A stretch of 32,000 bases of DNA from Candidatus Lokiarchaeum ossiferum (GTDB lineage: Archaea > Asgardarchaeota > Lokiarchaeia > Sigyniarchaeales > Promethearchaeaceae): assembly GCA_025839675.1 (NCBI GenBank), contig CP104013.1, positions 840,001-872,000 of the forward strand, in the 5' to 3' direction. Below, piece after piece: positions 2,019 through 24,150 of this stretch. How positions within the stretch are numbered: the stretch's first letter is position 1; every line of letters begins with the position of its first letter. The position numbers and the translations under genes are program-made. The notes below the pieces were generated by a model. That model was not told the DNA's origin. It did not search any database and was given only the letters and a program-made list of their open reading frames with translations.

Positions 2019-2819
2019 TTAGAAAAACATCTCTAAATTTGCGATCAAATTGCCAAACATGTGCAAAGCAATCGGAATGCGGATATCCTTTTTAAATACA
2101 AATAGTAACCCGAATAAAATACCTGAAACAAAAATTGGTAGTAATACTGATAAATCTCCATAATAATTTACATGCAATAAAGTCCATATTATTGATTGGA
2201 TAATAATAACATACATTAATTCTCCAAATTTCATATTATATAGGTTAGTTTGAGGCTTGGGTTTCAGGCTAAGATCGATTTGAACCCGTTTTGATCGAAG
2301 ATTCAAGAAAATACTGATTAAGAATCCCCGGAAGAATAATTCTTCTGAGATAGAGACTAAAATTGCGTACCAAAATAACACCCATTCTTCAGAGTCAAGG
2401 TTAAAATTTGAGGGGAGGTGTGATAAAGAAAATAATTTTATCACCAAAAACCCTATACAAAAGACCCAAAATGTGATGGAAAGGACTTGAGAATACATAA
2501 GATGTGATGATGAGTCCGGACTTTGAGGGTCATTTTTACTCTGATTACGACTGGAACAGTCCTTTTTCGTAACTTCTTGGAGATAATAATACCCAAGGAG
2601 ACAAAAAGTCCCTTGAAGAAAACAAAATAGAGTCAATTCATAATTCTGGGGATAAATTATAATTCCGAGTAAAATTAACCCAAATATATCAAGAAATAAG
2701 AAAATTAAGGAATTTTTGTGAAAAGATTGGAAATGAAATTTGTTCAAATAGATAGAAAAAATTCTTTTGAATTCCTTCTGTAAATCCTTTTCATTAGAAT
2801 CCATGTATACCATTATCAA
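2019..2819 (-). CDS. CPBP family intramembrane glutamic endopeptidase (CAAX protease/Abi-like)
   Basis: 266-aa polytopic membrane ORF. It carries the CPBP motifs SEELFFRGF (EExxxR), LLHVNYY and ALHMFGN (HxxxN). Confidence 0.8.
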   Translation of the reverse strand: MIMVYMDSNEKDLQKEFKRIFSIYLNKFHFQSFHKNSLIFLFLDIFGLILLGIIIYPQNYELTLFCFLQGTFCLLGYYYLQEVTKKDCSSRNQSKNDPQSPDSSSHLMYSQVLSITFWVFCIGFLVIKLFSLSHLPSNFNLDSEEWVLFWYAILVSISEELFFRGFLISIFLNLRSKRVQIDLSLKPKPQTNLYNMKFGELMYVIIIQSIIWTLLHVNYYGDLSVLLPIFVSGILFGLLFVFKKDIRIPIALHMFGNLIANLEMFF

Positions 2820-3200
2820 ACTTTCTTTTATATATTTGACTTCTTAAAAAAAGATTCAATAGAGAATGAAGTCTATCTAAAAGATTTTAAATATTGAAAA
2901 TGTAATTTCAATTTCTAATCCATCTTTTGAAACGATTAAATTTATTCAATGTTGCCCCAAGTTTAATTAGGGTAATTTTTTATTACTTTGAAGAGTCATC
3001 TGCTAGATTTAAAAGTTTAATTGAGTTACTATAGTATAACAATATCATCAAAACAATTGATCACATTCCAGTTATATAAAATAATCTTGCGACGTTGATT
3101 TCTTTTTACATAAGTTACTGATGATATATAGTTGGGTATATATTTAGCAAAAAATGTCATAATTGTATTTAGACATTTTTTTTAAGGAAAAGTGATTAAA

Positions 3201-6200: not shown

Positions 6201-7460
6201 CAGAATATTGTTCTTGATGTAAATGAATTTGGAATGACAACTCATTTAGATCAAGATAGATATCAACGACGAGAAGAAAACATGGGAACGTATTGGAGAG
6301 GAGAAGAACAAAGAGAGAGAATGGTTGCTTTCATGACGAATGGTAGTAAAGGTGATATATATGAGACCAATATCCCTGCTGTTACAGGTGTTAGTCCTTT
6401 ACATGAATTTGTTTGGGAAAGAAGCGAATACAGACCTGCGGAAGGAGATCAAGAAGCAAAAGATCCTAGTGATAAATCTTACCAAAAATGGCGTATAATC
6501 AATGTAATGTCTGCTTGTGATAAATTTATTGTATTCTTAGGTCAGCAATATTGGAAAGGACCTGATGATACTGAATATCAAAGCCAAGAATGGCATATTG
6601 AGACACCCGAAGGCCCTGTTGATCTAAATTACTGGTATTTAGGCTCTGTTCGCAACGATGATGTCTGGACATGGTTCCAATCTCAAATTTATGATATCGG
6701 CATTTCTGATCTTTCACTATACGAAGATGAAATTGTAGAAATGCTGAATTATGGACTTGAATTGGGCGGAGCAATGCTAACACCAGCAAATGTAGATATT
6801 GTAGGTCGTTCATTTACAGTACGAGTTCAAGCGGATGGAAAAGAACATGTCATGCGAATTGCTATAAATGACCAAGGAATTATGCAAGATATGTTCATGG
6901 GAACAAAATACATATCGAATGGAACATGGGCAGAGTGGGATCGAACAGTTCTCTCAGAAGCAACTATAGGATATACGACGGGAGAATTCTTTAGTGATGA
7001 TATTCCAGCTAATTATGTCCAGCTAGATTTAACCGATCCGACAATTATATTGGTCTCGCCAAGTACAGCCGGAGATGTTGAAGTGGGTTCTTCGATTTCT
7101 ATTACCGCCGCCGATAATGTAGGCGTCGTTGAGTTGAAATACCACTGGGATTCAGAAGCAATGGTCATTGTCACAGGGACTTTGTTCACTACCCCCGTAC
7201 CAAGTGCTTTGGGAATCCATGAATTACATATTTGGGCAAAGGACGAAGCGGGAAATGAGAAATATGTCATGTTTGCATTCACAACAGTGGAAGCGGGATC
7301 ATCATCCAATACAACAACGAATTCAACAACTGAAACATCAACAACCGGAACAGATGAGCCACTACCTTTCGACATTCCTGGTTATGGATACACATCCTTT
7401 GCAGTGTTCAGTTTGATTGGCTTAGTGATGATTGGTTTGAAACGTAAAAAGCGAACCTAA
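3201..7460 (+). CDS. large secreted cell-surface protein (signal peptide, 3 PPC-like modules, Ig-like domain, PGF-CTERM-like anchor)
   Basis: The 1422-aa ORF opens at GTG 3192, but ATG 3201 gives a classic signal peptide, MKRKTYAMLFLLLLAFPGITQFAG. The sequence is acidic and Asn/Asp/Tyr/Trp-rich with many N-x-S/T sequons. It ends in a Thr/Ser linker, a hydrophobic helix and KRKKRT. Confidence 0.85.
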   Translation: MKRKTYAMLFLLLLAFPGITQFAGVSSMEAVEISPESAADPVIIVSEGDILYYSWTGEKINETDSELERGICYVEITEVNIAENYTTYDNYNGVFNETEQSWEWIYANDEYVGNDNERWLSDNFTYPIFNHSILFSTDIVDVNAVNLSENTDQRIMDAFSATSINSYYETSGGWHIVKFDLNRSDDPSDLFEVEAWVNASTGILTYYEETSNNYTSKNELIGFEIAALDFEYPDSFGLELGDTIDRFMPDIMDQGPDGPDGPDYQYMYDSDDLLEENDDYTSAYQLWEVETYNATRYGSMRSIDPDYYRIDITTDVTLHVHMHGHNQQVGFGLVRINPADGTQMESDWASDPDDYDMQIDIADFDGTVEFAVFSDYEHKAGYILEVELEHDIYGHPDIMDDFLEYRDGVQENDIFTNAVWLDQYQNPTYEDLTHWDDDYYNFSLGEFEELYIEVNNWGMGTEDLIIEELDNSGTLIQSSSSSDDDFGLVIKGGETRRDVILNISGENIGQGYQLQFDHLNPPFQQWIKEADYLEPNNDYENPIDISAGEYSVPAQFWDLSTFDDPDYYSFYVESGKHVDIHVQFYPGADVALSLIDPNTGAVLEGPYGGDGGTDKNGHIGLSFDTTVSGHHMIRVAGNTGYYGDTYSLEVRIDYEINEWYGNEKNDGDDKDENSLWMKDTVDFIYHNPATNEDIIIVSQEFFTSPGMEPEELVMIRPYHEGGRVNLNNISGSVGENYFHKDIDLTSAAFNDLMMELIVDDWGLVSTTNVSTAEWYELWGTTPEGDQGYFFIQLLPDIGTTRYFHMNRKENSTGREDNNWNFVIDCSAGGMNDTDPTLGVVEGDWWQYLVQEQYQNRKWGDGPEQYEENERVHLATFEVTHIFALNRTTMGVVGKMEVQTFKNDGSLNTEKHIERFEPLLVYDTMHPENFVTMGGHGGLEGPPVLLPMVANWSQLEGDMIDLFTSMEDGPGMPEAYNFDENAVRFRFEWGSDEPDYKNEGRQNIVLDVNEFGMTTHLDQDRYQRREENMGTYWRGEEQRERMVAFMTNGSKGDIYETNIPAVTGVSPLHEFVWERSEYRPAEGDQEAKDPSDKSYQKWRIINVMSACDKFIVFLGQQYWKGPDDTEYQSQEWHIETPEGPVDLNYWYLGSVRNDDVWTWFQSQIYDIGISDLSLYEDEIVEMLNYGLELGGAMLTPANVDIVGRSFTVRVQADGKEHVMRIAINDQGIMQDMFMGTKYISNGTWAEWDRTVLSEATIGYTTGEFFSDDIPANYVQLDLTDPTIILVSPSTAGDVEVGSSISITAADNVGVVELKYHWDSEAMVIVTGTLFTTPVPSALGIHELHIWAKDEAGNEKYVMFAFTTVEAGSSSNTTTNSTTETSTTGTDEPLPFDIPGYGYTSFAVFSLIGLVMIGLKRKKRT
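4014..5156 (+). repeat. three tandem pre-peptidase C-terminal (PPC)-like modules inside the surface protein
   Basis: The pattern E-x-N-D ... D-(P/D)-D-Y-Y-x-(F/I) ... G-Y-x-L-(E/Q)-(V/F) repeats three times. The instances are LEENDDYTSAY..DPDYYRIDIT..GYILEVEL, VQENDIFTNAV..DDDYYNFSL..GYQLQFD and LEPNNDYENPI..DPDYYSFYV..DTYSLEVRI. Confidence 0.55.
7299..7457 (+). other. PGF-CTERM-like sorting signal (PGY variant)
   Basis: SSSNTTTNSTTETSTTGT linker, then PGYGYTSFAVFSLIGLVMIGL and KRKKRT at the extreme C-terminus. This matches the architecture of archaeosortase (ArtA) PGF-CTERM substrates, with F replaced by Y. Confidence 0.5.
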
Positions 7461-7578: not shown

Positions 7579-8730
7579 TTATTTCAAAAATCGGGAGAGA
7601 AAAACAGCCCAATCCTTGATTGGAATATCGGAATCAAACTTAGAATATTGAACAATTGCTTTTGGAGATGTGGTAATGAAATATTGCACTCCAGTGTCTT
7701 GAACCTCATGAAGTCTTTGTTTCCACATTTCTTCCGTAGTAGAATTTTCAACGATATATAACCCTCCAGCATAATCAAAAGCACTTGTTTGGGCAGATTC
7801 GAGTTCAATAAGTGTATTTCCGGGAATTTTTCCTAAAATGGAGCGTGGTTCTTCATAATGGTTACCACCTAACCTACCAAGTCGACTGCTATCCTGAAAA
7901 GCATATGTGGCTGTAAAGGAATTATCAAAAACCAATTTTTTAACTAAATTTTCGTTAAGCAGATATTCACTTAAATGATATACTTTGAGTCCAAAGGATT
8001 TAACGGCCTTAGGATAATCAAATTTCCATGTTCGATATGCTTCTGCTCCTTCCACAATAACGGTTGTAACTCCGGCTTTTTTATAAAGGTCAACGTTGGT
8101 TTGAGCAATCTTGCGAAAAGTCGCGATATTTCCCGCCCAAAGATCATCATGACCAGAATCTTTCATATTTAAAACTACGGGAGAAATATTCACTCGATTT
8201 AAAATGCCTACAACAGATTGAGGTATTTCAGATAAATTCAACCCAAGATCCTTATTTAAATCTTCTAATCCCGCTAAATTGCCAATAAAATAAGCAATCT
8301 CACCTTTTTGGGCGATTTTGAGTTTAGGAGTGTTCTTAAAATATTGTAAACTATCGACCGTTGGAATAGAATCAGATTTTTCAGAATTTTTAGCTAAAGT
8401 TGTACAGGACCCAGGGAATTCATTTTTTTCAGGAGATTTCAATTGATTTTCAATAGCATATGCTCTTAAATAGCGAATTAACATCGCTATATTCATACCC
8501 ACACCGTTTTTACTGGCGGGACAAAAAGTCATACATCGATTGCAAGTTAAACAATTGTAAATCGGTTGATTCGCAATAGCCGTCTCAGGATCATGCATTT
8601 GAAGGTCCCGTAATACACCTAAGGGATTAAAAATTCCCGCAATGTGCGTAGGACACACCAAATTGCATTGACCACAATTGATGCATTGAGTCACATGTTG
8701 TTGCATTTGGGATGAGGTATTGGTTAACAT
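7579..8730 (-). CDS. HdrD/GlpC-like (Fe-S)-binding protein with cysteine-less CCG-type domains
   Basis: 383-aa ORF. The N-terminus has two ferredoxin-type motifs, CINCGQCNLVCP and CLTCNRCMTFCP. The C-terminal 270 aa follow the layout of two CCG domains but contain no cysteine at all: YFIGN for YFxGC, DSGHD for CCG, FQDSSRLGR for HDPCHLGR, TTSPKA for TxCPxC. Confidence 0.7.
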   Translation of the reverse strand: MLTNTSSQMQQHVTQCINCGQCNLVCPTHIAGIFNPLGVLRDLQMHDPETAIANQPIYNCLTCNRCMTFCPASKNGVGMNIAMLIRYLRAYAIENQLKSPEKNEFPGSCTTLAKNSEKSDSIPTVDSLQYFKNTPKLKIAQKGEIAYFIGNLAGLEDLNKDLGLNLSEIPQSVVGILNRVNISPVVLNMKDSGHDDLWAGNIATFRKIAQTNVDLYKKAGVTTVIVEGAEAYRTWKFDYPKAVKSFGLKVYHLSEYLLNENLVKKLVFDNSFTATYAFQDSSRLGRLGGNHYEEPRSILGKIPGNTLIELESAQTSAFDYAGGLYIVENSTTEEMWKQRLHEVQDTGVQYFITTSPKAIVQYSKFDSDIPIKDWAVFLSRFLK

Positions 8731-8814
8731 TGATAGGATTCTCTTTTCTTTCGTTTTTAATTTTTTTCTTTCGGAATTTGATAAAAGCAGAGAAAATGAA
8801 GCAAAAAAAAAGAC

Positions 8815-9261
8815 TCAATATACTTTATATAAAATTCGTTCGAGCAAGTATGTAAGTTTTGATACACAAATGTTGCGCAAAATAGAGTAGCGATATTCAC
8901 TAACTTCAAGATGCACGAAGGAATAATTGATTTCCTTTAAATGTTGTTGAATGCGTTCAAAGGATCTTAATGTAGGAAGGACATCATGAGTATGGGCTTC
9001 ATCCCAATTAATTTTTAAATGTGACCGATATATTTCAGTAACTTGGCTTATAGCACGCTCATCTTCTTTCTTCTCTTCGCTAGCTTCATTTTCAAGAACA
9101 TTTAAGACGAGTTCTTTCATCGTCGCCACAGCGTCCGAAAGTTCAGTTATAGCAGACTTAATTTCCTCTCGCTCATATTCATCTTCTTCGGTCTCTTCAT
9201 AATAAATATCATCTTCATCTTCCTTAATTTCAGCAAGATGCCGAAGATTTTTAAACAACAT
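8815..9261 (-). CDS. hypothetical acidic helical protein
   Basis: 148-aa ORF whose Glu/Asp-rich N-terminal half is predicted helical. Its start lies 10 nt after the stop of the upstream coiled-coil gene, so it is likely co-transcribed. Confidence 0.5.
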   Translation of the reverse strand: MLFKNLRHLAEIKEDEDDIYYEETEEDEYEREEIKSAITELSDAVATMKELVLNVLENEASEEKKEDERAISQVTEIYRSHLKINWDEAHTHDVLPTLRSFERIQQHLKEINYSFVHLEVSEYRYSILRNICVSKLTYLLERILYKVY

Positions 9262-9271
9262 CGAGCATCAC

Positions 9272-10279
9272 CTAAATTCCCTCGTCTCCTAGGACTAATG
9301 AAACAGTATAATCAACATAACTTCGGCCATTTTTGCGATTGATATAGACCATACCCATATTTTCAAGTTCTTTGATATCAGAATAAGCGGTTTTTATTGT
9401 AATATTGGTAAGGGTTTTGAATTCCTTCACCTTCACAGTCTTGTTTTCAATTAAACAATATAATATTTTGTATAGTGATTTGGGAGGTAAATCCGGTCTG
9501 ATGAATTCCATAAATTTAAACAGACCTTCTTTTAAATAATTGATTGTTTTTTCCATCTCAAGGATGCCTTCACCGAGTTCAATATTTTCTTTAAGGAGAT
9601 CATCCGTATTATCTTCATTCGAATTAACTTGATTTTCAATCATTTTTATTCGGTCATTAATTTGATCATATTCCGCTTGCTTGGCTTCAAGAGCTTGTTC
9701 CGATGCAATTAATTTTTCCCCTAAATTAAAAATTTCTTTATCCATTTGATCTTTTTCTCTCTGAAATGCAGCATTATCCGTCATTAACTCGGAAATTTCT
9801 TGTGCTAATTCAGAGTTTTTAGTAGTGACCTCTGCAATTTTTGAATCTATTTCAATTGAATTTTTTTTTAATTCCCTCATTTGACTTTGATAATCGCGGA
9901 TAGTCAGTTCAAATTCTTTTTCTTTATTTTCAAAATCATTTTTCGCTTTAGACATAGAACTAAGCTTGATATTTTGACGTTCAATTTGTTTTCGGGCCAC
10001 ATTAAGAGAATCAGATAATTTTTGAACGTTTTGCTCTAAAATAGCTTTTAATCGGTAAAGTTGTTCATATTCTTCATGGTTTTCTTCGATTTGATCTTTA
10101 ATGGTATCAATATACTGCAAAACAAATTCACGATACTCATCTGTATCTTGGACAGGCTCATCCAAATTAATTGATCCATCAGAATATTCACTATTTTCTT
10201 CACTTAGCATTGATTTAATATTTTGGATTCGCCTGTATAATGCATCCGTGTCTTCATCGAGATCTTTATAGTTTTGCAT
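9272..10279 (-). CDS. coiled-coil protein with C-terminal winged-helix (HTH) domain
   Basis: 335-aa ORF. About 230 aa are heptad-like, Glu/Lys/Gln/Asn-rich. The C-terminus, LYKILYCLIENKTVKVKEFKTLTNITIKTAYSDIKELENMGMVYINRKNGRSYV, resembles a MarR/ArsR-type wHTH. Confidence 0.6.
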   Translation of the reverse strand: MQNYKDLDEDTDALYRRIQNIKSMLSEENSEYSDGSINLDEPVQDTDEYREFVLQYIDTIKDQIEENHEEYEQLYRLKAILEQNVQKLSDSLNVARKQIERQNIKLSSMSKAKNDFENKEKEFELTIRDYQSQMRELKKNSIEIDSKIAEVTTKNSELAQEISELMTDNAAFQREKDQMDKEIFNLGEKLIASEQALEAKQAEYDQINDRIKMIENQVNSNEDNTDDLLKENIELGEGILEMEKTINYLKEGLFKFMEFIRPDLPPKSLYKILYCLIENKTVKVKEFKTLTNITIKTAYSDIKELENMGMVYINRKNGRSYVDYTVSLVLGDEGI

Positions 10280-10372: not shown

Positions 10373-13300
10373 TTAAAGGAATAATTTCCCTTCTGAATAG
10401 ATTTCACTGATGAAAACAACATTTATGGTTGCATCAAATTGATAAATTTTTATTAAATCACCTTGAATTTTTTGAGTGACAACTTTTTTTTCTGTAGCCT
10501 TTTTTACATACCATTCATCGCCCCGAATCAAGCATTCTGGATAATTACTGCATTGATAGTAGACTTTTTTCTGAGTAACGACTTTAGTCATTTCTGCTTC
10601 ACATTTCTTGCAAAATACTTTCAATTCCCCTTTAGATTTCTCCCATTCTTTCATAATTTCAGCAATTCGCCTTTGCTTTTCTTCTTCTTGTTGGAGCTTT
10701 CGTTTTTCTTCTGCTTCCCTATCTTCATTTCGTCGTGATAAAATGGTTGATAATAAGTCTTCTTCAGATGAAGTTTCATCAATATTTTGAGAGAAATCGG
10801 TTTCAGATGAAGATTTTGAGGAAGATTCAGTTGTAATATTTGGAGATGGAGTGTTACTATTCATATCTTGATAGTATTTACAATCAAAGATGTTTTCCAT
10901 TTGCGCAGAATCTATTCCTCGAGGACAATTCACCATATTGCTACATGAAAAACATAACGGCGGTTTCTCTTCAGGGATTTCTTCTGGAGCATTCATATCA
11001 CGAAATTCTTTGCACGAAAAAATAGTTTCCATTTGATCCGAATCAATTCCCCTTGGACAATCAATCATATTACTACAGGAAAAACAAAGAGGCATCCCTG
11101 ATTCTTCTTCCGAATCAGCTTCTCCTGAAGAAGAACCAGACATAGTATCGTACTCATCACATTTCATACAAGATTCCATTTGAGATGAATCTAACCCTTT
11201 GGGACAATCCACCATATTTTTACATGAAAAGCAAAGAGGCATTCCATCAGAACTTTCATGCATTATTTTTGGTGAAGATTTTACAGTTGGCTGGGAATCA
11301 CTTCCAATGTCTATATCCCGAGATAACAATTCTAAGAGATCCATATCCGAATATTCATCATCTACTTCGATATTCAATTCTTCAATTATGGAATTTTCAC
11401 TTTTTAATTCAATTTTATCCCCTATTGTAGAATTTTTTGCTTCAAGAGCCGATTTTTCTTGTTTCTTGTTATATTCTGATAAAAAAAGTGTTGTATATTT
11501 ACTTCGATTCAATCTATATTGATCTAATTTTCCAAAACGATTGAGGGCACTTGTTTGTGAATACAAGGATTCAAAGAAGTCATCGGCATAGGGTATTTCA
11601 GTGAATTGAAACCCTTCCTCAATTTCAGAAGGAAGATTCTGACAGTCATGAGCGAAAAGATCATCAGTAATCTGAAAACAGTAAGGACATATATGCTTAA
11701 ATTTATAATGTTTTTTCTTTGCTTTGATGGGAGTTATTTGTTCTGATCCTTCCGAAAGGTCATCGAATTCGGATTTAATTTCTTTCTGGGCAATTTGCTC
11801 TGCCAGTTCATCATCATATATTGATTCAAATGTTTCCTTCAAAGATGGATTTTCTTGAGTAATCAGTTTATTATATAACTGAAAAAATAATGGGGTATAT
11901 TCAGTTCGATTTAACTTATTTTCATCCACAAAGCCCTTTCTCTGCCATGCGTTTATGGAATAATATAAATATAAGAAAAAGTCACTAAAACATGCTCGAA
12001 TGTCAAATTGAAATGTTTCAGGAACATCTTCAGGTAATTTTGAACATTTATGAAGACTTAAATCTTCTTCCGAGATATAACAATAAGGACAAATTTGCTT
12101 AACTCGATAATTTTTTACTTTTAAACTATCTAAAATGTTAAGTTTTTGTTCCACAAAAATTTCTTTGGGAACTCGAGAGGGTAACTCCTCTGTCACTCCT
12201 TCTACAAGAACATTTATTTCTTCAGATGTTCTCCTAGATACTATTTCTAAATCATTTGATTGTTTATTACCCGAACCTGAAAGAAATTGAGAATATTCAT
12301 AAGAAAAGAGAGATGAATACTCAGATCTGTCAAATATAAAAAAATTGAGTATTCCTTTACTTGATAAAGAGCCTATCTTTTGGTAAATTTTTTCAAAAAA
12401 CTTTGCACTAAATAGCTGAATATCAAATTTAAAACCAGAAGGGATATGATCACAAGAATGACCAAATAGACATTCGTGTAGAGTATAACAATACGGGCAA
12501 ATCTGAGGTACGGTTGTCTTTTCTACATCTATACCCTTTTCTTCAATGATTTTTTCAATTTTACCCACTTTTTGTTTTAAAGAACTATAGTAACCAGTAA
12601 GATCATAAACTACGGGGTTATCTAGAGTTTCATTGTATTCTAAAGTTATATTTGGATCTTCACTCTTTTGAAGACGATTGTGAATGCGAATAAACATTTG
12701 AAGATATTTACGCCGATTAAGACGATATTGATCAATATGACCGTGTCGATTCAATCCATTAGAGTTTTTATATAAATCTTTAAAAAATGTAACTTGCGAG
12801 AGAAGTGCGGAATAAGAAAAATCAGGAGGAAGCTTTGCACACGTATGATTGACCAAATTAGTGGTGGATTTGTAGCAAAAAGGACAAATTTGATTCAGTT
12901 GTTGGAGTTTAAGAAGAGTTTGGCGCTCATCTTCCTTTTGTTTTTGTGCACGCTTTTCTTGAAGTTGTAAATTTTTACGTTTCTTTGCTTCAAGAAGTCG
13001 TTTCTGTTCTTCAGCAACTTTATGTCTTTCAATCAGTATTCGCTGTTTATAATCTTTGAATTTTTCCTCCTCCAAATAAGGAGGTTGGAAATATTTGGTA
13101 AACAAACGATTATATTTATTATGACTAAATTTATTGAAATCAATTTTTCCATATTTATTCAAAGCACCAATTTCACGGTACAATCGCCTGAAAAATTCAT
13201 AATCTTCTCCAAGATTTAGAGTGAATTTTATGTCGGGGGGTTTCTTATCACATTCATGGTCGTAAAGGGAATTGAATGATTCAAAACAGAAGGGACAAAT

Positions 13301-14194
13301 TTGTTTTAAATCAGAAATCTTTTGAAAAGACTTGGAATTTCTCCTAGATTTGTCTGATAAAGATGTTTTAGTTGAATTTTTATGAGATGATGGCTTAAGA
13401 TTTGAACTTATTTCATCTTCTATTTTTTCCATCTCGGTTTTTTTGTGTGGTTCACTTGTAACCTTTTCATCAGGTAGAACTAATAATTTTTCAAGAACTT
13501 CTACTGATGGATCTGCAGTTTCTTCCAATGATTTTATTGCTTGCAAAAAATTTGTTCTATATCTCTTGAGATCAAATCGATAGAGGTTTAAAAATCCGCG
13601 AGGATCCCAAATTCCTGAAGATTTATACACAAGATCAAAAAATTCATCTGGATGTATTCTACATTGAAAAGTAAAAAATGGATTATCATTACATTTATGA
13701 GAAGACAGCCGTCGATATTTCAATCCGCAATAAGGGCATAATTGAACCAATTTCGTTCCTTTTGAAAATGCAAAATCATTTTTTTTTTCAACAAGCTCTA
13801 TTTTTTGAGCCAATATTTCCTTAATTTGCTTTTCATCATCGAAATTTCCATCGATTATTGCGGTTTCAAAAGAAATTTGAGGATTGTTGATTAAGCGAAG
13901 ATATAATTTAATAAACGAATATTGATAAGGTGTACGATCAAGCTTAACTACATCAATATGGCCTGATTTCTTATTAAACGCAACAGAATTATGATAAAGA
14001 TAATAAAAGAACTGATCGTTGCAAATTTCTTTCTTAAACATGAAATTTGGAGGTGCAATTTTGCACTTGTGCCGAGAAATTGCTTTAAAAGATTGAAAAC
14101 AAAATGGGCACACTGCACTTAACGAATAATTCTGTGTTATTGACGCATTTATTTCAGATATTCGGACCCCCCCCGAATTTACAAATTCTGTCAT
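10373..14194 (-). CDS. giant Cys-rich repeat protein (7 CCHC-knuckle modules, 3 four-Cys modules, topoisomerase-type Zn ribbon)
   Basis: Uninterrupted 1273-aa ORF with internal repeats visible at protein level (see the sub-features). It is a paralog of 14433..16439, with a shared linker motif (MDLLELLSRDIDIG vs MDVLDMMSRDYDLTG) and a shared C-terminus (SEIYSEGKLFL vs SEIYSDGKLFL). Confidence 0.8.
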   Translation of the reverse strand: MTEFVNSGGVRISEINASITQNYSLSAVCPFCFQSFKAISRHKCKIAPPNFMFKKEICNDQFFYYLYHNSVAFNKKSGHIDVVKLDRTPYQYSFIKLYLRLINNPQISFETAIIDGNFDDEKQIKEILAQKIELVEKKNDFAFSKGTKLVQLCPYCGLKYRRLSSHKCNDNPFFTFQCRIHPDEFFDLVYKSSGIWDPRGFLNLYRFDLKRYRTNFLQAIKSLEETADPSVEVLEKLLVLPDEKVTSEPHKKTEMEKIEDEISSNLKPSSHKNSTKTSLSDKSRRNSKSFQKISDLKQICPFCFESFNSLYDHECDKKPPDIKFTLNLGEDYEFFRRLYREIGALNKYGKIDFNKFSHNKYNRLFTKYFQPPYLEEEKFKDYKQRILIERHKVAEEQKRLLEAKKRKNLQLQEKRAQKQKEDERQTLLKLQQLNQICPFCYKSTTNLVNHTCAKLPPDFSYSALLSQVTFFKDLYKNSNGLNRHGHIDQYRLNRRKYLQMFIRIHNRLQKSEDPNITLEYNETLDNPVVYDLTGYYSSLKQKVGKIEKIIEEKGIDVEKTTVPQICPYCYTLHECLFGHSCDHIPSGFKFDIQLFSAKFFEKIYQKIGSLSSKGILNFFIFDRSEYSSLFSYEYSQFLSGSGNKQSNDLEIVSRRTSEEINVLVEGVTEELPSRVPKEIFVEQKLNILDSLKVKNYRVKQICPYCYISEEDLSLHKCSKLPEDVPETFQFDIRACFSDFFLYLYYSINAWQRKGFVDENKLNRTEYTPLFFQLYNKLITQENPSLKETFESIYDDELAEQIAQKEIKSEFDDLSEGSEQITPIKAKKKHYKFKHICPYCFQITDDLFAHDCQNLPSEIEEGFQFTEIPYADDFFESLYSQTSALNRFGKLDQYRLNRSKYTTLFLSEYNKKQEKSALEAKNSTIGDKIELKSENSIIEELNIEVDDEYSDMDLLELLSRDIDIGSDSQPTVKSSPKIMHESSDGMPLCFSCKNMVDCPKGLDSSQMESCMKCDEYDTMSGSSSGEADSEEESGMPLCFSCSNMIDCPRGIDSDQMETIFSCKEFRDMNAPEEIPEEKPPLCFSCSNMVNCPRGIDSAQMENIFDCKYYQDMNSNTPSPNITTESSSKSSSETDFSQNIDETSSEEDLLSTILSRRNEDREAEEKRKLQQEEEKQRRIAEIMKEWEKSKGELKVFCKKCEAEMTKVVTQKKVYYQCSNYPECLIRGDEWYVKKATEKKVVTQKIQGDLIKIYQFDATINVVFISEIYSEGKLFL
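10532..10612 (-). other. C4 zinc ribbon resembling the topoisomerase-type DNA-binding Zn finger
   Basis: CKKCEAEMTKVVTQKKVYYQCSNYPEC fits C-x2-C-x(15-17)-C-(S/T)-N-Y-P-x-C, as in zf-C4_Topoisom-type ribbons (CxxC ... CxxYPxC). Confidence 0.6.
10880..11245 (-). repeat. three tandem type-B four-Cys modules
   Basis: GMPLCFSCKNMVDCPKGLDSSQMESCMKC, GMPLCFSCSNMIDCPRGIDSDQMETIFSC and PPLCFSCSNMVNCPRGIDSAQMENIFDC. The pattern is C-x2-C-x5-C-P-x(12-14)-C. Confidence 0.8.
11480..14110 (-). repeat. seven tandem type-A modules: C-P-[FY]-C-x10-H-x-C knuckle plus about 60-aa helical domain
   Basis: The seven knuckles are AVCPFCFQSFKAISRHKC, QLCPYCGLKYRRLSSHKC, QICPFCFESFNSLYDHEC, QICPFCYKSTTNLVNHTC, QICPYCYTLHECLFGHSC, QICPYCYISEEDLSLHKC and HICPYCFQITDDLFAHDC. 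Each is followed by (L)PP/PS-x-F-x-F, FF-x2-LY and a G-x-(I/L)D-x-Y-(R/K)-LNR-x2-Y-like segment. Confidence 0.8.
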
Positions 14195-14432
14195 AGATCA
14201 ATTAAAGTAAAGGTTTTTCGTGAGCAATAAATACATTCATTTCTATTCCAGATACTTTTTTTTCTAATAATTCTAGGAATTTTTTTTCTAATAACCACAG
14301 TTATTGTGAAGATTTTGGAGCTTTCCTAAAAATTTTTACAATGAAAATTCCGATCTAACCACTTATGTCTTCAATAAAAACAATTTGAGAAAAATCAAAA
14401 TGAACTATTATTCTTAAAAACACATTAGTAAT

Positions 14433-16439
14433 TTAGAGGAACAACTTTCCATCAGAATATATCTCACTAACAGTGACTATATTTTTTAAATCATCGTATT
14501 GATAAAGAATTATTAAATCCCCATGCTCTATATGGGATACAATACCTTTTAAGACCGCTTGAGATATATACCAAGGATCAGCTTTGATTTTGCACTCGGG
14601 ATAGTTTGTACATCGATGAAAAATTTTTCGAGTGGTGACAATTTTGCTCATTTCGGCCTCACAGGAACTGCAAATTACTTTCAATTGTCCTCGATCTTGC
14701 TCCCAACGATTCATTATTTCTTTAAGTAAATCTTGTTTTTCTTCATTTGTAATTTTAATTTGAGCTTCTTCATGGATTGAAATGTCAATATTCTCCAGAT
14801 CTGCAAGATTCTGAAGATCTTCTTCTGCTTTATTTGGGATAATTTCTTCAGTGCGCTTTTTCTGTCGTTTAAATAATCGAAACCTATGGCGTTTTTTTTC
14901 AAGTTTCTTTTGAATTTCTTTTTCCAATTCTTCTTCAATTTCTTTTTGGATTGCATTTTCCCGATCTTCTCGATTCGTTTCTGTTTCTTTAAAAGCATGG
15001 CATTGAAAGACTTGTTCCATTTGTTCAGAATTTAAATTAAGAGGACAATTATCTATATGGGTGCAAATCCCACAAATTGAAATATCAGATGGAACTATCG
15101 AAGATTTATATGAAGTTGTAGAAAAATTCATGTTTTCATATAAATCACAATCAAAAATAGTTTCCATTTGAGATGAATCTACACCTTTTGGACAATCCAT
15201 CATATGTGTACAGGAGAAACACCATGGCATCCCATCATCAGGGGGTGTTTTTAAGCCTATTTTTTCCTGAGTTGACAGAGCTTTAGCGGTTTTTGCAGGT
15301 AACCCGGTGAGATCATAATCTCGAGACATCATATCTAGAACATCCATATTGGACAAATCTTGATTATCCAGCTGTGAAAGATCCATGGTGAGATCAAGAT
15401 CTTCTTCATCCAAGCCATATAATGAATCGTGGAGTTTCTGCAACTTGAAATTATAAAATTGAAAGAATTCAGTCGAATAAGTCGACTGATTAATTTTTAT
15501 TAAGTCAGGAGTACCATTTGGAGTAGTGATGCGCAATTTTCGATATAAATCTTCGAAAAACAATTCTTCATTCAAAGCAGATTCAAAAGAAAACTCAGAA
15601 GGCATTTTTTCACATTTGTGATCTCTTAAAGAATGAATTACTTGCAAGCAATAGGGACATAAGACTTTTGAGGAAACAAAATTCTTCAGAGTGTCCTTTT
15701 TAGCCTTTTCAAGGATTTCCTTTTCGAATTTTTCAAAACGGGATTTCTTGTGGGATGGAGTGGAATAATTTTTCTCCATTCGAGCTTTTTCTAATGAAGG
15801 CCCTTCCATCTCCATCATACGATCATAATAAGTGAAAAATAACAACCGATAAGCCGCAGTATTCAATTTATAAAGATCCACATTCTTTGAAGAACTCCAA
15901 GCATCAAGCTTTTTATAGAGAAATATGAAGAAATCGTTCGTGCATATTTTTTCTTGAAAATGGAAATCGGGAGATAACTCCTCGGGAAGGGAAGCACAAA
16001 CATGTTCAGATAAACTCGGAACACCTTCATAACAATATGGGCAGATCTGTTTTATAAAAATAGAAGGAGGAACTGATGAATTACGAGTAACAGAACTAGT
16101 TTCAGTTTTAGCAGGATTTTTGATAATCGGATCTGTAATTTTAAAAGAAGTTTCAATAGAAGCATCTATTTCTTTTTGATATGCCCGAAGAAATGCAATT
16201 TGGTACTTCACAGGATGAAGTTTATAAATATCAAAAGTTCCTTGATCTGATAATGCATCAGATTCTTTATATATATGCTTGAAAAATGAAGCATCATCGA
16301 TTTTTTTGGAAAACTGAAAATTTGGAGGAAGATCAAGGCATTGGTGCCCATAAAGAGAAAGAAAAGATTTAAAGCAAAAGGGACAAATTTGACGGTATTT
16401 TTTTAATTTTGATTCTTTTGACTCTTCATTTTTATCCAT
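14433..16439 (-). CDS. Cys-rich repeat protein, shorter paralog (3 CCHC modules, 2 four-Cys modules, topoisomerase-type Zn ribbon)
   Basis: 668-aa ORF with the same module order as the 1273-aa neighbour. It also has a Glu/Lys-rich segment before the terminal Zn ribbon and an identical-style C-terminus. Confidence 0.8.
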   Translation of the reverse strand: MDKNEESKESKLKKYRQICPFCFKSFLSLYGHQCLDLPPNFQFSKKIDDASFFKHIYKESDALSDQGTFDIYKLHPVKYQIAFLRAYQKEIDASIETSFKITDPIIKNPAKTETSSVTRNSSVPPSIFIKQICPYCYEGVPSLSEHVCASLPEELSPDFHFQEKICTNDFFIFLYKKLDAWSSSKNVDLYKLNTAAYRLLFFTYYDRMMEMEGPSLEKARMEKNYSTPSHKKSRFEKFEKEILEKAKKDTLKNFVSSKVLCPYCLQVIHSLRDHKCEKMPSEFSFESALNEELFFEDLYRKLRITTPNGTPDLIKINQSTYSTEFFQFYNFKLQKLHDSLYGLDEEDLDLTMDLSQLDNQDLSNMDVLDMMSRDYDLTGLPAKTAKALSTQEKIGLKTPPDDGMPWCFSCTHMMDCPKGVDSSQMETIFDCDLYENMNFSTTSYKSSIVPSDISICGICTHIDNCPLNLNSEQMEQVFQCHAFKETETNREDRENAIQKEIEEELEKEIQKKLEKKRHRFRLFKRQKKRTEEIIPNKAEEDLQNLADLENIDISIHEEAQIKITNEEKQDLLKEIMNRWEQDRGQLKVICSSCEAEMSKIVTTRKIFHRCTNYPECKIKADPWYISQAVLKGIVSHIEHGDLIILYQYDDLKNIVTVSEIYSDGKLFL
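14592..14672 (-). other. C4 zinc ribbon resembling the topoisomerase-type Zn finger
   Basis: CSSCEAEMSKIVTTRKIFHRCTNYPEC. Confidence 0.6.
15000..15230 (-). repeat. two type-B four-Cys modules
   Basis: GMPWCFSCTHMMDCPKGVDSSQMETIFDC and ISICGICTHIDNCPLNLNSEQMEQVFQC. Confidence 0.75.
15450..16385 (-). repeat. three tandem type-A CCHC modules
   Basis: QICPFCFKSFLSLYGHQC, QICPYCYEGVPSLSEHVC and VLCPYCLQVIHSLRDHKC, each followed by the (L/M)P-x-F-x-F and FF-x2-(I/L)Y segment. Confidence 0.8.
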
Positions 16440-16657
16440 AATTAAAAATTCCTTTGATCAAACGACTTTTCAGTTTCATATTTTTGAAAAAAACCAGTTC
16501 TAATTAAATAATTGAAACTCTTAATCTATATTTCTCTGTTTCTAATTATAAAAAAATGGGTTTATAAAAATAATTCTTAAAGGTAAACTTTCTTCTCATT
16601 ATTATATTTTAGGAAAAATAAAATTACTTGGTTAAAATGATGGAAAAAGAAAAGGGA

Positions 16658-16776
16658 GTTTCTCAGTTTGAGGTTTCGCAATATTCGAGATATCACTACT
16701 ATCCACAACGCATCCGGCCTTAACTTCAGTGTTCGGAATGGGTACTGGTGTTATTCCGGACCTATGACCGAGAAAC
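16658..16776 (-). rRNA. rrf: 5S ribosomal RNA, copy 1
   Basis: The reverse complement reads GTTTCTCGGTCATAGG...CCCATTCCGAACACTGAAGTTAAGGCCGG...CTGAGAAAC. This contains the universal 5S loop C/helix III core CCGAACxxGAAGTTAAG, and the termini pair (GTTTCTC/GAGAAAC). Length is 119 nt, followed by a T-rich tract on the minus strand. Confidence 0.85.
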
Positions 16777-16797
16777 AATATAGATAGTGATATAAGC

Positions 16798-16805
16798 TTA
16801 TTAAA
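16798..16805 (-). promoter_or_regulatory. TATA box of 5S copy 1
   Basis: Minus-strand TTTAATAA lies 22-29 nt upstream of the inferred 5S 5' end, and is conserved in both repeat copies. Confidence 0.45.
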
Positions 16806-16933
16806 CTTATCGAAGTGCTCAAGATCCTTCTTAAATTTTATTATTTACATCTGAGGCATGTTCGGTTAAAATTCATTTCAAAGAACGATAGCTTTTTTTA
16901 TTTGAAAGACATGGTTGATTTAGGTGGAAATTT

Positions 16934-17401
16934 TTGAGCATAGGACTTATTTTAATTATCATCGTGTCGGTTATTGCAGGAGGATACTTTATATTACTTA
17001 TAATAATTCAGTTGATAAGTAAACGCCCAAATAATTTAGGAATTTCAGGAGGAAGATTACAAGCGTGTCCTGATATTCCTAATTGCGTGTGTAGTTATAG
17101 CAAAGAAAAAAATTCTAAAATAGAGCCATATTCATTTTCAAAATCAATTAAAGAACAAAATTCTATTTTGATTGAAATAATCCAGAAATATCCAAGAACT
17201 AGAATAATCAAAAATGAAATAAATTATGTTTATGCAGAATTTCGTTCCCTGGCGTGGCGTTTTATAGACGATGTGGAGTTTTTTCTGGATGAAACTGCCA
17301 AATGCATCCATTTTCGCTCTGCATCTAGAATTGGGACAAATGATTTCGGAATGAATCGAAAACGGATGGAAGATATAAGACAATTGTTGAAGGAATCTTA
17401 G
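16934..17401 (+). CDS. DUF1499-like membrane-anchored protein
   Basis: 155-aa ORF with a TTG start preceded by AGGTGG 7 nt upstream. It has an N-terminal TM helix, and CPDIPNCVCS matches the C-P-x2-PNCV-S signature I associate with DUF1499. Confidence 0.55.
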   Translation: MSIGLILIIIVSVIAGGYFILLIIIQLISKRPNNLGISGGRLQACPDIPNCVCSYSKEKNSKIEPYSFSKSIKEQNSILIEIIQKYPRTRIIKNEINYVYAEFRSLAWRFIDDVEFFLDETAKCIHFRSASRIGTNDFGMNRKRMEDIRQLLKES

Positions 17402-17577
17402 GGGTATTGAGGCAGAAATTATTGATAATTGGAATGTAAAGTAAGAGATTTACCAATGATCATCTTTCTCTTCTTTTTTTTAGTTAATTTGAAAAATAAT
17501 AGAGCGTTTTTTTTTTGAGAAACACTAGACCCAATATAAAATTAGCATTACTGGTAATTGGATAAAAAGAAAAGGGA

Positions 17578-17696
17578 GTTTCTCAGTTTGAGGTTTCGCA
17601 ATATTCGAGATATCACTACTATCCACAACGCATCCGGCCTTAACTTCAGTGTTCGGAATGGGTACTGGTGTTATTCCGGACCTATGACCGAGAAAC
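17578..17696 (-). rRNA. rrf: 5S ribosomal RNA, copy 2
   Basis: Identical over all 119 nt to 16658..16776. Confidence 0.85.
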
Positions 17697-17717
17697 AATT
17701 TAGATAGTGATATAAGC

Positions 17718-17725
17718 TTATTAAA
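17718..17725 (-). promoter_or_regulatory. TATA box of 5S copy 2
   Basis: Same TTTAATAA element at the same distance from the 5S 5' end. Confidence 0.45.
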
Positions 17726-17811
17726 CTTATCGAAGTGCTCAAGATCCTACTTAAATTTTGTTATAATCTAAAACACAAAAATCAAGAATTAAAAAGAACC
17801 AAAAAAAATAA

Positions 17812-18549
17812 TTATAATCGCATCGAATAAGGAATTAGGGCCCGTCGCATTATTTTACTATAAGAATAAAGCACAGAACGCATAGATTTTACAAGACTAA
17901 GGATTAATTCTCCTTTAATGCTAGTATAATAGTATTTCAACAAAATCATGTCTGCTTTGTGATCATGTTCCTTAAGGTTTGTATTTATGATGGTTTTTAT
18001 CTCGGATAACCGTTCTTCCCTAATATCTTCATCAATCAAATCTATTTTATGGAGAAATACATTAAATTGAGCTTTTGGTGCAACCAATGATTTCGAGTTT
18101 AATGCTTCTATTAGATCTTCCAAAATTTGATCCTTAAATTTATCAAACTGACTGATATCCATTACAAAGATGATAGAATCAGATTCACCAAAAGCTTGCT
18201 CTTGATCTAACCCAAGCCAACGTTCTATTTCTTGACCCGCAGAATCTGCAACCCCTGCTGAAACATCCAACCAATTATAGGTATAATTTTCAATTCCTCG
18301 AGTTGGTTCCAAAGGATCATCAATCAAGGTTTGTGGACTTGAGTCTTCGAAAAACACACTCCGTATAGTAGATTTTCCTGCTGCGGGGGGACCAATGAAC
18401 AATATTCGCCTGATCGATTCATCTTCATTTGCAATTCCGAGCATTCGCATTAAAAAAGCATCGGTAGGCTCCCCTTCTTCCTTATTGGCATCAATTAATT
18501 CAGCCACTTTTTTCGAGACTTCAATTGAGACCTTTTCTTCTTCTGTCAT
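17812..18549 (-). CDS. Rag/Gtr1-family small GTPase with about 45-aa N-terminal extension
   Basis: 245-aa ORF with G1 GPPAAGKST, G3 DSAGQE and G4 LHKID (HKxD is the Rag/Gtr1 variant of NKxD). Blocks GKSTIRSVFF, FLHKIDLIDEDIRE and YYTSIKGELILSLVKSMRSVL parallel RagA GKTSMRSIIF, LVHKMDLVQEDQRD and [21 protein letters not shown] (recalled from memory). Confidence 0.7.
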   Translation of the reverse strand: MTEEEKVSIEVSKKVAELIDANKEEGEPTDAFLMRMLGIANEDESIRRILFIGPPAAGKSTIRSVFFEDSSPQTLIDDPLEPTRGIENYTYNWLDVSAGVADSAGQEIERWLGLDQEQAFGESDSIIFVMDISQFDKFKDQILEDLIEALNSKSLVAPKAQFNVFLHKIDLIDEDIREERLSEIKTIINTNLKEHDHKADMILLKYYYTSIKGELILSLVKSMRSVLYSYSKIMRRALIPYSMRL

Positions 18550-20402: not shown

Positions 20403-22184
20403 TTAGAGAATTGCAACACCAAAACCACCAATCAACTCACCAGCTACTTGACTGATCACAATAATCTCTAAACCCGCAATAATATAATATTGAGACAAGT
20501 ATTTGGTAACTTTCATCCAAGTACCTCGTTGAGGAATAATTATGGCCAGACAAGCGTAAATTGGCATAGTTAAATAATAGATGGTGAAATACAAATCAGT
20601 AAAAAATGCAGGAGGTGGTTTACCTAACTGTAAATTCATCCCTTGGACATCTTGCAGAGCACCCATTGTGACATTCAATAGGAAAAGAACATCTTTCATA
20701 AAGATCATAATCCCAATATTAATAATAGTGAGCATCAGTAAAGTCCCTTTGAAGACCCCAATTACCTGCTGCCTATCCCGACGGAGCTTCAATATTTTTT
20801 CAACATTGGTTGAGATAAATTTGGATATTATTTCGGTATTACCTCCTATATCTAAACTAGAAGTAAAAATTCGAAGAAAACGATCAATAATACTGCTGGA
20901 TGTGCTATCAGAAAACCATTGCCACGCAATAATCGGATCAATCCCAAATTTTGATTGGGTGTATAATAATTTAATATCAGTAGTCAAAGGACCAAATTGT
21001 TCCCGAGAGATGATGTTAACAGAATCAAAAATGCTTCCTCCTAATAATGCTGTTGTAGCGCCCAAAGTGCGAATAAAAACGGGGAAATTAGCATCCCGTC
21101 GTTTTATAATATCTTCAAATTTTTCAGCAACATAACCAGGATAAAACATGGAGATTCCAAATATGATCATGAAAACTGGGAGAGAGATCACAGAATTACC
21201 GTCAGCATCTTTTAGAAAGAAAGTAATGAATGCCAAAATTGGCATGAAAACAAAAACACAGATTAAAAAGGAATAAAGAACTTTTTCGTACTCAGCGGTT
21301 TTCCTTTGAATATTCACCAAACCATCTTTGGGGGAGATCGCATAAAAGGCAACCATAAGAGCAATATAAACAAGTTCTATTACCCCCAAAATGAGAAATA
21401 AATTCCGAGTATTGGCAGCTTCATCACTTCCAAAAAGAAACATCATCAAAAGAAAGGTAATAGATATAAAACTCAATGAAGTGGAAAGTGCGGTAAACAT
21501 ATCGTTAAGTACCTCAAGGGATTTCAACTTGCGAGTATAATCCGAAATATAACCGTTTAAAACCGATTGCTGTTCTTTTAAGAAATAATCTTCTAAATTT
21601 TCACCCGCATCCAAAGCTTGGGAAAAACGGGAGAGAAAATCACCAAATCTGGAACTTGCTGTCGTAGCACTTACTTTTTTAATGCTATCTAAATATCCAA
21701 GATTCCACTCTTTCGCCATGGTACGAATTCGTTTTACCTCTAAAGCAATTAGTCCAAAAGATTTTTCCCGACGACTTACATTCTCAAAAAGTTGATCTCG
21801 ACTAGCTTTTGAGGTAGAAATACCACCCATATAGGTAACAAGCATAGGAAGAGCAGTATCAATTTGTTCTTGACGTAAAGAGCGTTTAAAATAGGGAAAG
21901 ATAAAAACTATAATGAATCCAAGAAAAAAACATGAAATTGATAAAGGAAAAATTATCCCAGAAATCATAGGGCTCATTTCCAATAAAATTCCGATGATTA
22001 TTCCGGACCCTAGACCACCCACTGTAATAGGGAGAAGAATTTTAAATAAATATTCACCTATGGATTTCTGTATTCCTGCTTGGATTAGTGTTTGTTGGAA
22101 CGAATCAACAAGTTTCCGATAAACATCTTGCATTGTTTCTTTGAAACTTTGTTTTTTATTCTCTTCGTCTCGTTTTTCCATCAT
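20403..22184 (-). CDS. arlJ: archaellum membrane platform protein ArlJ (FlaJ)
   Basis: 593-aa polytopic membrane protein with two TadC/GspF-like halves. The size and the position directly after arlI are typical of FlaJ. Confidence 0.8.
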   Translation of the reverse strand: MMEKRDEENKKQSFKETMQDVYRKLVDSFQQTLIQAGIQKSIGEYLFKILLPITVGGLGSGIIIGILLEMSPMISGIIFPLSISCFFLGFIIVFIFPYFKRSLRQEQIDTALPMLVTYMGGISTSKASRDQLFENVSRREKSFGLIALEVKRIRTMAKEWNLGYLDSIKKVSATTASSRFGDFLSRFSQALDAGENLEDYFLKEQQSVLNGYISDYTRKLKSLEVLNDMFTALSTSLSFISITFLLMMFLFGSDEAANTRNLFLILGVIELVYIALMVAFYAISPKDGLVNIQRKTAEYEKVLYSFLICVFVFMPILAFITFFLKDADGNSVISLPVFMIIFGISMFYPGYVAEKFEDIIKRRDANFPVFIRTLGATTALLGGSIFDSVNIISREQFGPLTTDIKLLYTQSKFGIDPIIAWQWFSDSTSSSIIDRFLRIFTSSLDIGGNTEIISKFISTNVEKILKLRRDRQQVIGVFKGTLLMLTIINIGIMIFMKDVLFLLNVTMGALQDVQGMNLQLGKPPPAFFTDLYFTIYYLTMPIYACLAIIIPQRGTWMKVTKYLSQYYIIAGLEIIVISQVAGELIGGFGVAIL

Positions 22185-22220
22185 ATATCAGTTTGATTTG
22201 GTTATTTGACCATGATTAAC

Positions 22221-24008: not shown

Positions 24009-24150
24009 TTCTCATGGAATTCATATTGAAGATGTAGAAATTGTTTCTAACCATCCAAGTAACCCTTTTTACTATATATTTGGGTTTTTAGAAATTTCTT
24101 CACAAAAAAATCAATTTTTTTATCTTAATTGAAAGAAAAAATGAAATAAT

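Follow-up and report, generated by a model that had tools for sequence, protein, structure and literature searches.

Two adjacent genes of Candidatus Lokiarchaeum ossiferum encode paralogous repeat proteins built from unnamed, putative metal-binding modules and belong to a conserved gene cassette

Among described systems, the C2HC fingers (zf-C2HC_2, PF13913, and POGZ, 2e72), the C4 ribbon of type IA DNA topoisomerases (PF01396) and, as a functional analogy only, the finger arrays of TFIIIA come closest to two adjacent genes that we describe here from a 32,000-nucleotide (nt) stretch of Candidatus Lokiarchaeum ossiferum (contig CP104013.1, positions 840,001 to 872,000 of the forward strand), referred to below as the window. 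The two genes, named 'small' and 'big', encode metal-finger repeat proteins, a familiar genre, but the modules from which they are built are unnamed in any library. The more abundant of these, the A module, shares with the C2HC fingers the Cys-Cys-His-Cys order, a CPxC knuckle and a hydrophobic F/L pattern. However, this likeness spans only ~22-25 residues, His and Cys stand too close together in the H-x-C of the A module to be carried as a pair on a helix, and the fingers do not have the ~55-residue helical core that is obligatory in the A module. The C-terminal ribbon of both proteins has the topoisomerase arrangement, C-x2-C-x16-C-x5-C with (N)YP(E/D)C preceding the final Cys, but here there is only one ribbon, and joined to it are a helix peculiar to the family and an alpha/beta tail whose conservation exceeds even that of the ribbon. 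As in TFIIIA, many non-equivalent metal modules are carried on one polypeptide, and genes for 5S ribosomal RNA (rRNA) lie near in three loci. In contrast to TFIIIA, the A modules are ~80 amino acids (aa) long rather than ~28, the linkers are variable (34-67 residues), the ligands are spaced differently, each protein is acidic overall, and no homology was detected. The two genes, both taken from the list of open reading frames (ORFs), are as follows.

14433-16439, minus strand: 'small', a putative Zn-module protein of 668 aa (NEF87_000691 / UYP44406.1); from N- to C-terminus three A modules, an acidic peptide, two B modules, a Glu/Lys/Arg-rich (E/K/R) helix, the ribbon and the C-tail
10373-14194, minus strand: 'big', its putative Zn-module paralogue of 1273 aa; from N- to C-terminus seven A modules, an acidic peptide, three B modules, an E/K/R helix, the ribbon and the C-tail

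The 'small' ORF was 100% identical to the L. ossiferum protein NEF87_000691 / UYP44406.1. By BLASTP, 'small' and 'big' were 32% identical over ~700 columns (E = 3e-106), and the extra N-terminal part of 'big' likewise aligned to the A-module array of 'small'. A preliminary description of the locus, made from its letters and ORF list, had proposed two adjacent same-strand genes of 668 and 1273 aa with one architecture, carrying 3+2 and 7+3 copies of the A and B modules. The ORFs, their coordinates and their paralogy were confirmed, as were the copy numbers, by pattern scans and hidden Markov model (HMM) scans. These scans also found, in each protein, one acidic peptide of the form MD[LV]L[ED][LM][LM]SRD, one ribbon ending in NYPEC and a common C-terminus (...GKLFL). 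When the six-frame translated window was searched with profiles of the three module types, no other ORF was matched; the module pattern shared by the two ORFs is therefore not due to chance. Both proteins are acidic, with net charges of -20 and -22.

The A modules make up the N-terminal part of each protein.

15432-16397, minus strand: A-module array of 'small' (A1 16158-16397, A2 15816-16055, A3 15432-15671)
11462-14122, minus strand: A-module array of 'big' (A1 13883-14122, A2 13511-13750, A3 13070-13309, A4 12659-12898, A5 12272-12511, A6 11864-12103, A7 11462-11701)

Each A module joins a CP[FY]C-x9-H-x-C knuckle to an aromatic two-helix core, and those of 'big' scored 75-98 bits each as HMM domains. 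The knuckle spacing was C-x2-C-x9-H-x-C in 23 of 23 modules; the Cys/His pattern had been described correctly, but with ten residues before the His where there are nine. In the alignment of the modules all metal ligands were invariant, and the conserved residues were mostly core aromatics. Most A modules are near neutral in charge. The linkers between them are charged as well as variable, and some contain long E/K/R helices.

An AlphaFold2 model of A1 of 'small', built from the 23-sequence module alignment, had a mean predicted local distance difference test score (pLDDT) of 92 and a predicted template modelling score (pTM) of 0.81. In this model a short hairpin carries CPxC and a non-helical stretch carries H-x-C (His18 and Cys20), with a 3-residue helical turn at 31-33 and two long helices, the first starting at residue 36 (36-45) and the second at 62-78, both of which hold invariant or near-invariant aromatic residues. 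The model suggests that the A module is an independently folded unit, in which a Cys3-His site would clamp the N-terminal hairpin onto the two-helix aromatic core. The metal at this site is most likely zinc. A classical C2H2 or C2HC beta-beta-alpha finger (PF00096, PF13913) was considered for the A module and rejected. Such a finger needs C-x2-4-C-x12-H-x3-5-(H/C), from which all 23 modules differ; zf-C2H2 was matched by one of the 23, at E 0.39, and zf-C2HC_2 by none at E <= 10; and the second ligand pair is not helix-borne in the AlphaFold2 model.

The earlier statement that no family could be named for these proteins held up against Pfam, NCBIfam, PDB profiles and Foldseek searches. Scanned singly, neither the 23 A modules nor 16 B modules gave a recurring Pfam family, even at E <= 10. 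Profile searches of the PDB with the A alignment returned chance-level matches only, the best being the atypical C2HC finger of POGZ (2e72, E 0.18). The A model found no Foldseek match in the PDB (best E 2.1, template modelling (TM) score <= 0.33) or in BFVD (best E 1.8). A Foldseek comparison had been suggested for single modules of both types, and was made here with the A model.

The B modules follow the acidic peptide in both proteins.

14979-15239, minus strand: B modules of 'small' with a Cys4 motif (B1 15126-15239, B2 14979-15086)
10853-11248, minus strand: B modules of 'big' (B1 11135-11248, B2 10988-11101, B3 10853-10969)
15306-15362, minus strand: acidic amphipathic peptide of 'small', QDLSNMDVLDMMSRDYDLT, from the pattern scan
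11303-11359, minus strand: acidic amphipathic peptide of 'big', DEYSDMDLLELLSRDIDIG, from the pattern scan

The B motif reads C-x2-C-x5-C-P-x13-C, and all four Cys were invariant in the 16 modules. Here too the Cys4 pattern had been recognised, but QME and the last Cys are separated by four residues, not three. A PDB profile search with the B alignment gave chance-level matches only, and the B-module region had a pLDDT below 50 in the AlphaFold2 model of the C-terminal half. Judged by their cysteines, the B modules could bind zinc or an iron-sulfur (Fe-S) cluster. By motif and HMM they are not ferredoxin-type [4Fe-4S] domains, which would show a C-x2-C-x2-C-x3-C-P motif; this motif is missing, and Fer4 was matched by none of the 16 modules. 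Among the orthologues, the acidic peptide of 'small' was 42-89% conserved compared with 14-56% for the flanking linkers, and it is a candidate short docking motif.

Both proteins end in the same domain.

14436-14738, minus strand: C-terminal domain of 'small', a helix, a C4 ribbon (C590, C593, C610, C616) and an alpha/beta tail ending in GKLFL
10376-10678, minus strand: C-terminal domain of 'big', with matching helix, ribbon and tail

The ribbon sequences of the two proteins are CSSCEAEMSKIVTTRKIFHRCTNYPEC and CKKCEAEMTKVVTQKKVYYQCSNYPEC, both with the pattern C-x2-C-x16-C-x5-C. As PF01396 demands, this is a four-Cys, two-knuckle ribbon in which an aromatic-Pro pair precedes the last Cys, and the Cys were invariant in 11 homologues. 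Zn_ribbon_Top1 (PF01396) was the best Pfam match in both paralogues, with E 2.7e-5 and 24.3 bits for 'big' and E 5.7e-5 and 23.3 bits for 'small'. It was also a precomputed match for the homologues P0003 and P0008 (P followed by a number marks a protein retrieved by the searches, and L001-L008 are the contigs of relatives). Apart from this sub-threshold ribbon, Pfam and NCBIfam found nothing in the full proteins. The C-terminal domain is the most conserved part of the proteins, with 61-94% identity across orthologues in the ribbon and 68-98% in the tail, and that of 'big' scored 159 bits against the C-terminal profile. A PDB profile search with the C-terminal alignment gave chance-level matches only. 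AlphaFold2 modelled the domain with a pLDDT of 65-82, as a three-stranded ribbon followed by a helix and three further strands. The Foldseek matches of the C-terminal-half model, which included E. coli Topo I, were all non-significant.

A type IA DNA topoisomerase was rejected, with no TOPRIM or catalytic domain match in Pfam or NCBIfam at E <= 1. The database label 'DNA topoisomerase zinc-finger domain protein' is misleading, and this UniRef name covers the ribbon alone. A RelE/ParE-like tail was likewise discarded: RelE and HigB were the best Foldseek matches, but at E >= 0.56 and TM <= 0.13 from a low-confidence model, and hhalign gave a probability of 3.6% against E. coli RelE. The E/K/R segment was modelled as a single long helix (residues 83-135 of the model, pLDDT 70-77), and in this form would fit the role of a spacer. 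It is the least conserved segment, with 4-6% identity and large gaps in distant orthologues. The Glu/Lys/Arg-rich helix that had been listed as part of the architecture is indeed found in both window proteins, but not every member of the family has it: P0008 and P0009 lack it.

Both ORFs are real genes under purifying selection. The ratio of non-synonymous to synonymous substitution rates (dN/dS) was measured against the L001 orthologues, which are 73% identical: it was 0.13 for 'small' and, over the first 373 codons, 0.15 for 'big', with a synonymous rate (dS) of ~1.0-1.3. All recovered relatives were uninterrupted ORFs, down to 36% identity. Frameshifts or relaxed selection in relatives had been named as what would speak against the genes; instead, the ORFs were intact and dN/dS was 0.13-0.15. 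Folded units on flexible linkers should produce a mosaic of conservation, and this was seen. In 'small' orthologues the A modules were 35-83% conserved compared with 17-67% for the linkers; the B modules were 28-97% conserved, and linkers fell to 4-30%, with indels, in distant orthologues. The metal ligands of A, B and ribbon were all invariant. Modules strung on cytoplasmic 'beads-on-a-string' proteins are the best explanation for both genes, although we hold it only tentatively.

The family has extremely few members. As had been proposed in the preliminary description, a profile of the A modules was used for an exhaustive HMMER search, which covered 1.84 billion representatives of ~15 billion proteins and gave 25 matches at E <= 1e-3, ~13 of which were true members with whole A modules: the L. 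ossiferum protein, one protein from a Promethearchaeota metagenome-assembled genome, and metagenome singletons. Every one of these members either appears lokiarchaeal or comes from a metagenome. Nine of the 25 matches covered a knuckle of 22-25 residues only, and those with a named source were mollusc proteins, the only matches from outside the archaea. The ones that were scanned had a CARD or Mab-21 domain together with fingers of the zf-C2HC_2 type, and some showed identical x2/x9/x1 spacing, a match to the archaeal A knuckle that is probably due to convergence. P0013, P0016 and P0018-P0020 were therefore not accepted as family members, the common part being the 22-25-residue ligand motif only; these are gastropod or bivalve CARD or Mab-21 (cGAS-like) proteins with CPxC-x9-H-x-C arrays. 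P0017, P0025 and P0026 were unrelated repeat proteins with a partial profile match and were treated as false positives. No relatives were found in GTDB-species genomes, JGI metagenome contigs or IMG/VR; the GTDB set missed L. ossiferum itself, probably because it does not hold its genome.

Within the family, the architectures 3A+2B, 7A+3B, 5A+1B, 2A+1B and A-only were found. Both 3A+2B and 7A+3B occur in the L002 lineage, in proteins 36-37% identical to those of the window, and the 1408-aa 'big' orthologue on L002 has kept 7A+3B at 36% identity. Most modules were closest to the module in the same position elsewhere: A1, A2 and A3 of 'small' pair with A1, A2 and A3 of P0003, and A1, A4, A5, A6 and A7 of 'big' pair with the same five modules of P0006. 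The arrays are old, fixed and made of non-equivalent units. As module counts and positions were kept across deep divergence, the expansion must be ancient. The difference in copy number had been read as module expansion by internal duplication; the difference stands, but ongoing or recent change in copy number does not, and a recent tandem expansion was rejected on the conserved counts and positions. On L008, from a divergent lineage, an A-only protein of 345 aa (286-1323) has three full A domains, to which the stop-to-stop ORF adds a weak, partial fourth. Another gene with A modules (2312-4006) lies ~1 kb downstream, with an oppositely oriented AAT-family gene between them; paired A-module genes thus recur.

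Downstream of 'big', three genes on the same strand complete a four-to-five-gene cassette.

9272-10279, minus strand: partner 1, an acidic coiled-coil protein of 335 aa with a C-terminal winged helix (HTH_11)
8815-9261, minus strand: partner 2, an acidic helical protein of 148 aa without family; weak DUF6630 match below cut-off
7579-8730, minus strand: partner 3, a TfrB/HdrD/GlcF-like protein with Pfam Fer4_8 and CCG matches

The order of metal-module gene(s), coiled-coil/winged-helix gene, 148-aa gene and Fer4 gene, all on one strand, was found in the window, L002, L005, L006 and L007, and L003 kept it without the Fer4 gene. The cassette of partner genes is fixed wherever downstream DNA was available; it is the most informative feature of the locus, and the preliminary description had not included it. 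As 'big' is missing in L003 and L005, the core of the cassette is 'small' together with the partners. Sizes hardly vary between loci, at 309-338 aa for the coiled-coil protein and 148-151 aa for the acidic helical protein.

In partner 1, Pfam found HTH_11 at 270-321 (E 1.3e-6) and otherwise coiled-coil families only. Its long coiled coil weakly matches the SMC, Rad50 and ASRP models, but scores of 21-32 bits compare with cut-offs of 300-1087. The NCBI name 'Chromosome partition protein Smc' was rejected, with 32 bits against a cut-off of 567 and neither ATPase head nor hinge; the name is an over-annotation resting on coiled-coil similarity. The coiled-coil family matches that of the metal-module proteins in its narrowness, with only 6 clusters, each beside a metal-module gene wherever the upstream DNA could be read, and its proteins are 64-72% identical across lineages, compared with 36-38% for the metal-module proteins. 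The central coiled-coil segment is nearly invariant across lineages. Partner 2 comes directly after the coiled-coil gene in 6 of 6 such loci read and is 64-68% identical. Partner 3 scored 84 bits against NCBIfam TfrB (cut-off 385); it keeps the 2x[4Fe-4S] motifs, with eight Cys at 16-70 plus one other Cys, and its CCG domains are Cys-free, as they are in the L002 orthologue. These CCG domains are probably catalytically dead, to judge from this loss. Partner 3 is present in L002, L005, L006 and L007 and missing in L003.

Taken together, we propose, as a possibility still short of an even chance, that the proteins act as a multivalent metal-stabilised tether, anchored by the C-terminus and acting with the winged-helix partner on nucleic acid. 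The anchor of each protein would be the part conserved best, namely its C-terminal helix, topoisomerase-IA-type ribbon and alpha/beta tail, while the docking sites on display would be the A modules, the Cys4 B modules and the acidic peptide MDLLELLSRD. It could form a physical complex with the products of the adjacent genes, that is a dimeric coiled-coil/winged-helix protein, the 148-aa acidic protein and the ferredoxin-like protein. This complex would be located on nucleic acid, where the ribbon and the winged helix would be the contacts, as a multivalent tether or organiser. Contact with nucleic acid is suggested because the ribbon type and the winged helix are both types of DNA-binding domain; the preliminary description, too, had taken the terminal ribbon as a hint of such binding, which stays putative.

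Several observations weigh against this tether. The PF01396 scores of 23.3 and 24.3 bits are below the gathering cut-off of 32, and the C-terminal half as a whole was modelled at low confidence (AlphaFold2, mean pLDDT 57). All four cassette proteins are acidic (-20, -22, -24 and -15) and most A modules are about neutral, unlike typical nucleic-acid-binding arrays. A gene order that is conserved is by itself no proof of a complex. P0007 (851 aa, 5A+1B, L004 3530-6085), from the same metagenome as L001, is encoded outside the cassette, and the divergent P0012 has A modules only. The neighbours of P0007 on L004 are radical-SAM, thioesterase and thiolase genes.

The acidic charge and the aromatic-rich, near-neutral modules would also suit a pure protein-protein scaffold or adaptor in signalling or the cytoskeleton. 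Its A modules would bind protein, perhaps under the control of a GTPase, and the ribbon would be structural or oligomerising, without contact with nucleic acid. The conserved A residues are mostly core aromatics, which leaves the surfaces free to specialise, and a GTPase gene lies upstream.

17812-18549, minus strand: Gtr1/RagA-like small GTPase (PF04670, E 1.9e-20)

In L001 and L002, as in the window, this gene precedes 'small' on the same strand, and in L002 it directly adjoins 'small'; the protein is 97% identical to its L001 orthologue (dN/dS 0.03). However, in Lokiarchaeum the adjacency is broken by 5S and DUF1499 genes, and the L003 and L005 contigs end before the position where the GTPase gene would lie. 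The ribbon and the winged helix of the partner are, moreover, of types usual on DNA. We consider such a scaffold rather unlikely.

The B modules raise the question of a redox or metal-linked device, in which they would carry Fe-S clusters and the Cys sites would be redox or metal sensors or stores, served by the ferredoxin-like partner. The spacing C-x2-C-x5-C recurs in the [4Fe-4S] sites of EndoIII/MutY, AddB/Dna2/Cas4, WhiB and SPASM, and L. ossiferum is an anaerobe. The B modules resemble these sites in their invariant C-x2-C-x5-C-P and fourth Cys, with all four cysteines invariant and Pro after the third, and at 5 loci the cassette includes a 2x[4Fe-4S] protein. On the other hand, the fourth Cys lies 14 residues downstream in the B modules and upstream in the known sites, and no similarity was found by HMM or PDB searches. 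No Fe-S HMM recurred, with one NADH-G_4Fe-4S_3 match (E 0.031) in 1 of the 16 B modules. In the A modules, moreover, residues of the core that are not ligands are conserved and each position has an identity of its own, which argues for more than metal storage. We consider the device unlikely, though if the Fe-S reading or the 5S reading were true, the importance of the locus would be considerably higher.

The 5S reading would make the proteins 5S rRNA- or 5S rDNA-associated factors, functional analogues of TFIIIA, for which a multi-zinc-module architecture would be fitting. It derives from the DNA upstream of 'small'.

16658-16775 and 17578-17695, minus strand: two 5S rRNA genes (Rfam, 67.3 bits each)
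16644-17764, minus strand: duplicated 5S region, a 201-nt unit with 99% identity that flanks a DUF1499 gene

In the window, the nearest 5S gene ends 218 nt before 'small'. Three loci, representing two divergent lineages, share a same-strand 5S gene ~220-265 nt upstream of 'small'. Besides the window these are L001, where three copies occupy the matching position (8421-9774), and the distant L003, with one copy immediately before 'small' (1-109) and a second between 'small' and the coiled-coil gene (2450-2567). L005 offers 260 nt of upstream DNA only. Against this reading, L002 has the full cassette without a 5S gene, the proteins are acidic, their fingers belong to neither the C2H2 nor the TFIIIA type, and the linkage may be plain inherited synteny. 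The 5S units also look autonomous: co-transcription with 'small' is unlikely because each copy carries its own upstream A/T-rich, promoter-like region and a T-run within the 201-nt repeat. A 5S-associated factor is very unlikely, and we take the linkage as an unexplained, low-probability lead and not as functional evidence. There is a slim chance that the cassette is an Asgard-specific system for 5S rRNA or the 5S gene, an independent archaeal counterpart to the logic of TFIIIA and the 5S ribonucleoprotein (RNP). Such a system would be built on a new metal-binding fold, with 3- and 7-module proteins binding 5S rRNA or 5S rDNA multivalently together with the coiled-coil/winged-helix partner.

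That the genes are decaying, unexpressed or selfish repeats without cellular function, as the extreme narrowness of the family might suggest, is barely credible given dN/dS of 0.13-0.15, ORFs intact to 36% identity, invariant metal ligands, and PADLOC, PHROGs and viral-contig searches that gave no mobility signatures or matches for the pair. With all such searches negative, a defence system or mobile element was also rejected.

Few Asgard archaea are in culture; L. ossiferum is among them, and ~2000 conserved residues under selection at this locus were without usable annotation. Two new metal-binding modules are defined here, of which A has a confidently predicted fold unmatched in the structure libraries searched, two misleading database labels ('DNA topoisomerase zinc-finger domain protein' and 'Smc') are corrected, and the four-to-five-gene cassette can be handled as one functional unit. 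If the tether model is true, the proteins would be a lineage-specific component of the nucleoid or of cell organisation in an organism studied for its eukaryote-like cell biology. The scope of this is limited, as orphan repeat proteins are common in Asgards, the family is very narrow and it has no tie to eukaryotic signature functions.

Other genes of the window were also recorded. The plus strand carries a 1422-aa ORF (3192-7460) with a weak PPC-domain match only, and a 469-aa protein (26145-27554) with matches to Tubulin (E 1.8e-34) and Tubulin_C (E 3e-12), which is of the tubulin type and not of the FtsZ type. On the minus strand, 20403-25979 holds a cluster resembling those for type-IV filaments or the archaellum, with a T2SSF platform protein, a T2SSE ATPase, a KaiC-like ATPase and two archaeal flagellin-type proteins; its T2SSE and T2SSF genes are syntenic in L001 as well.

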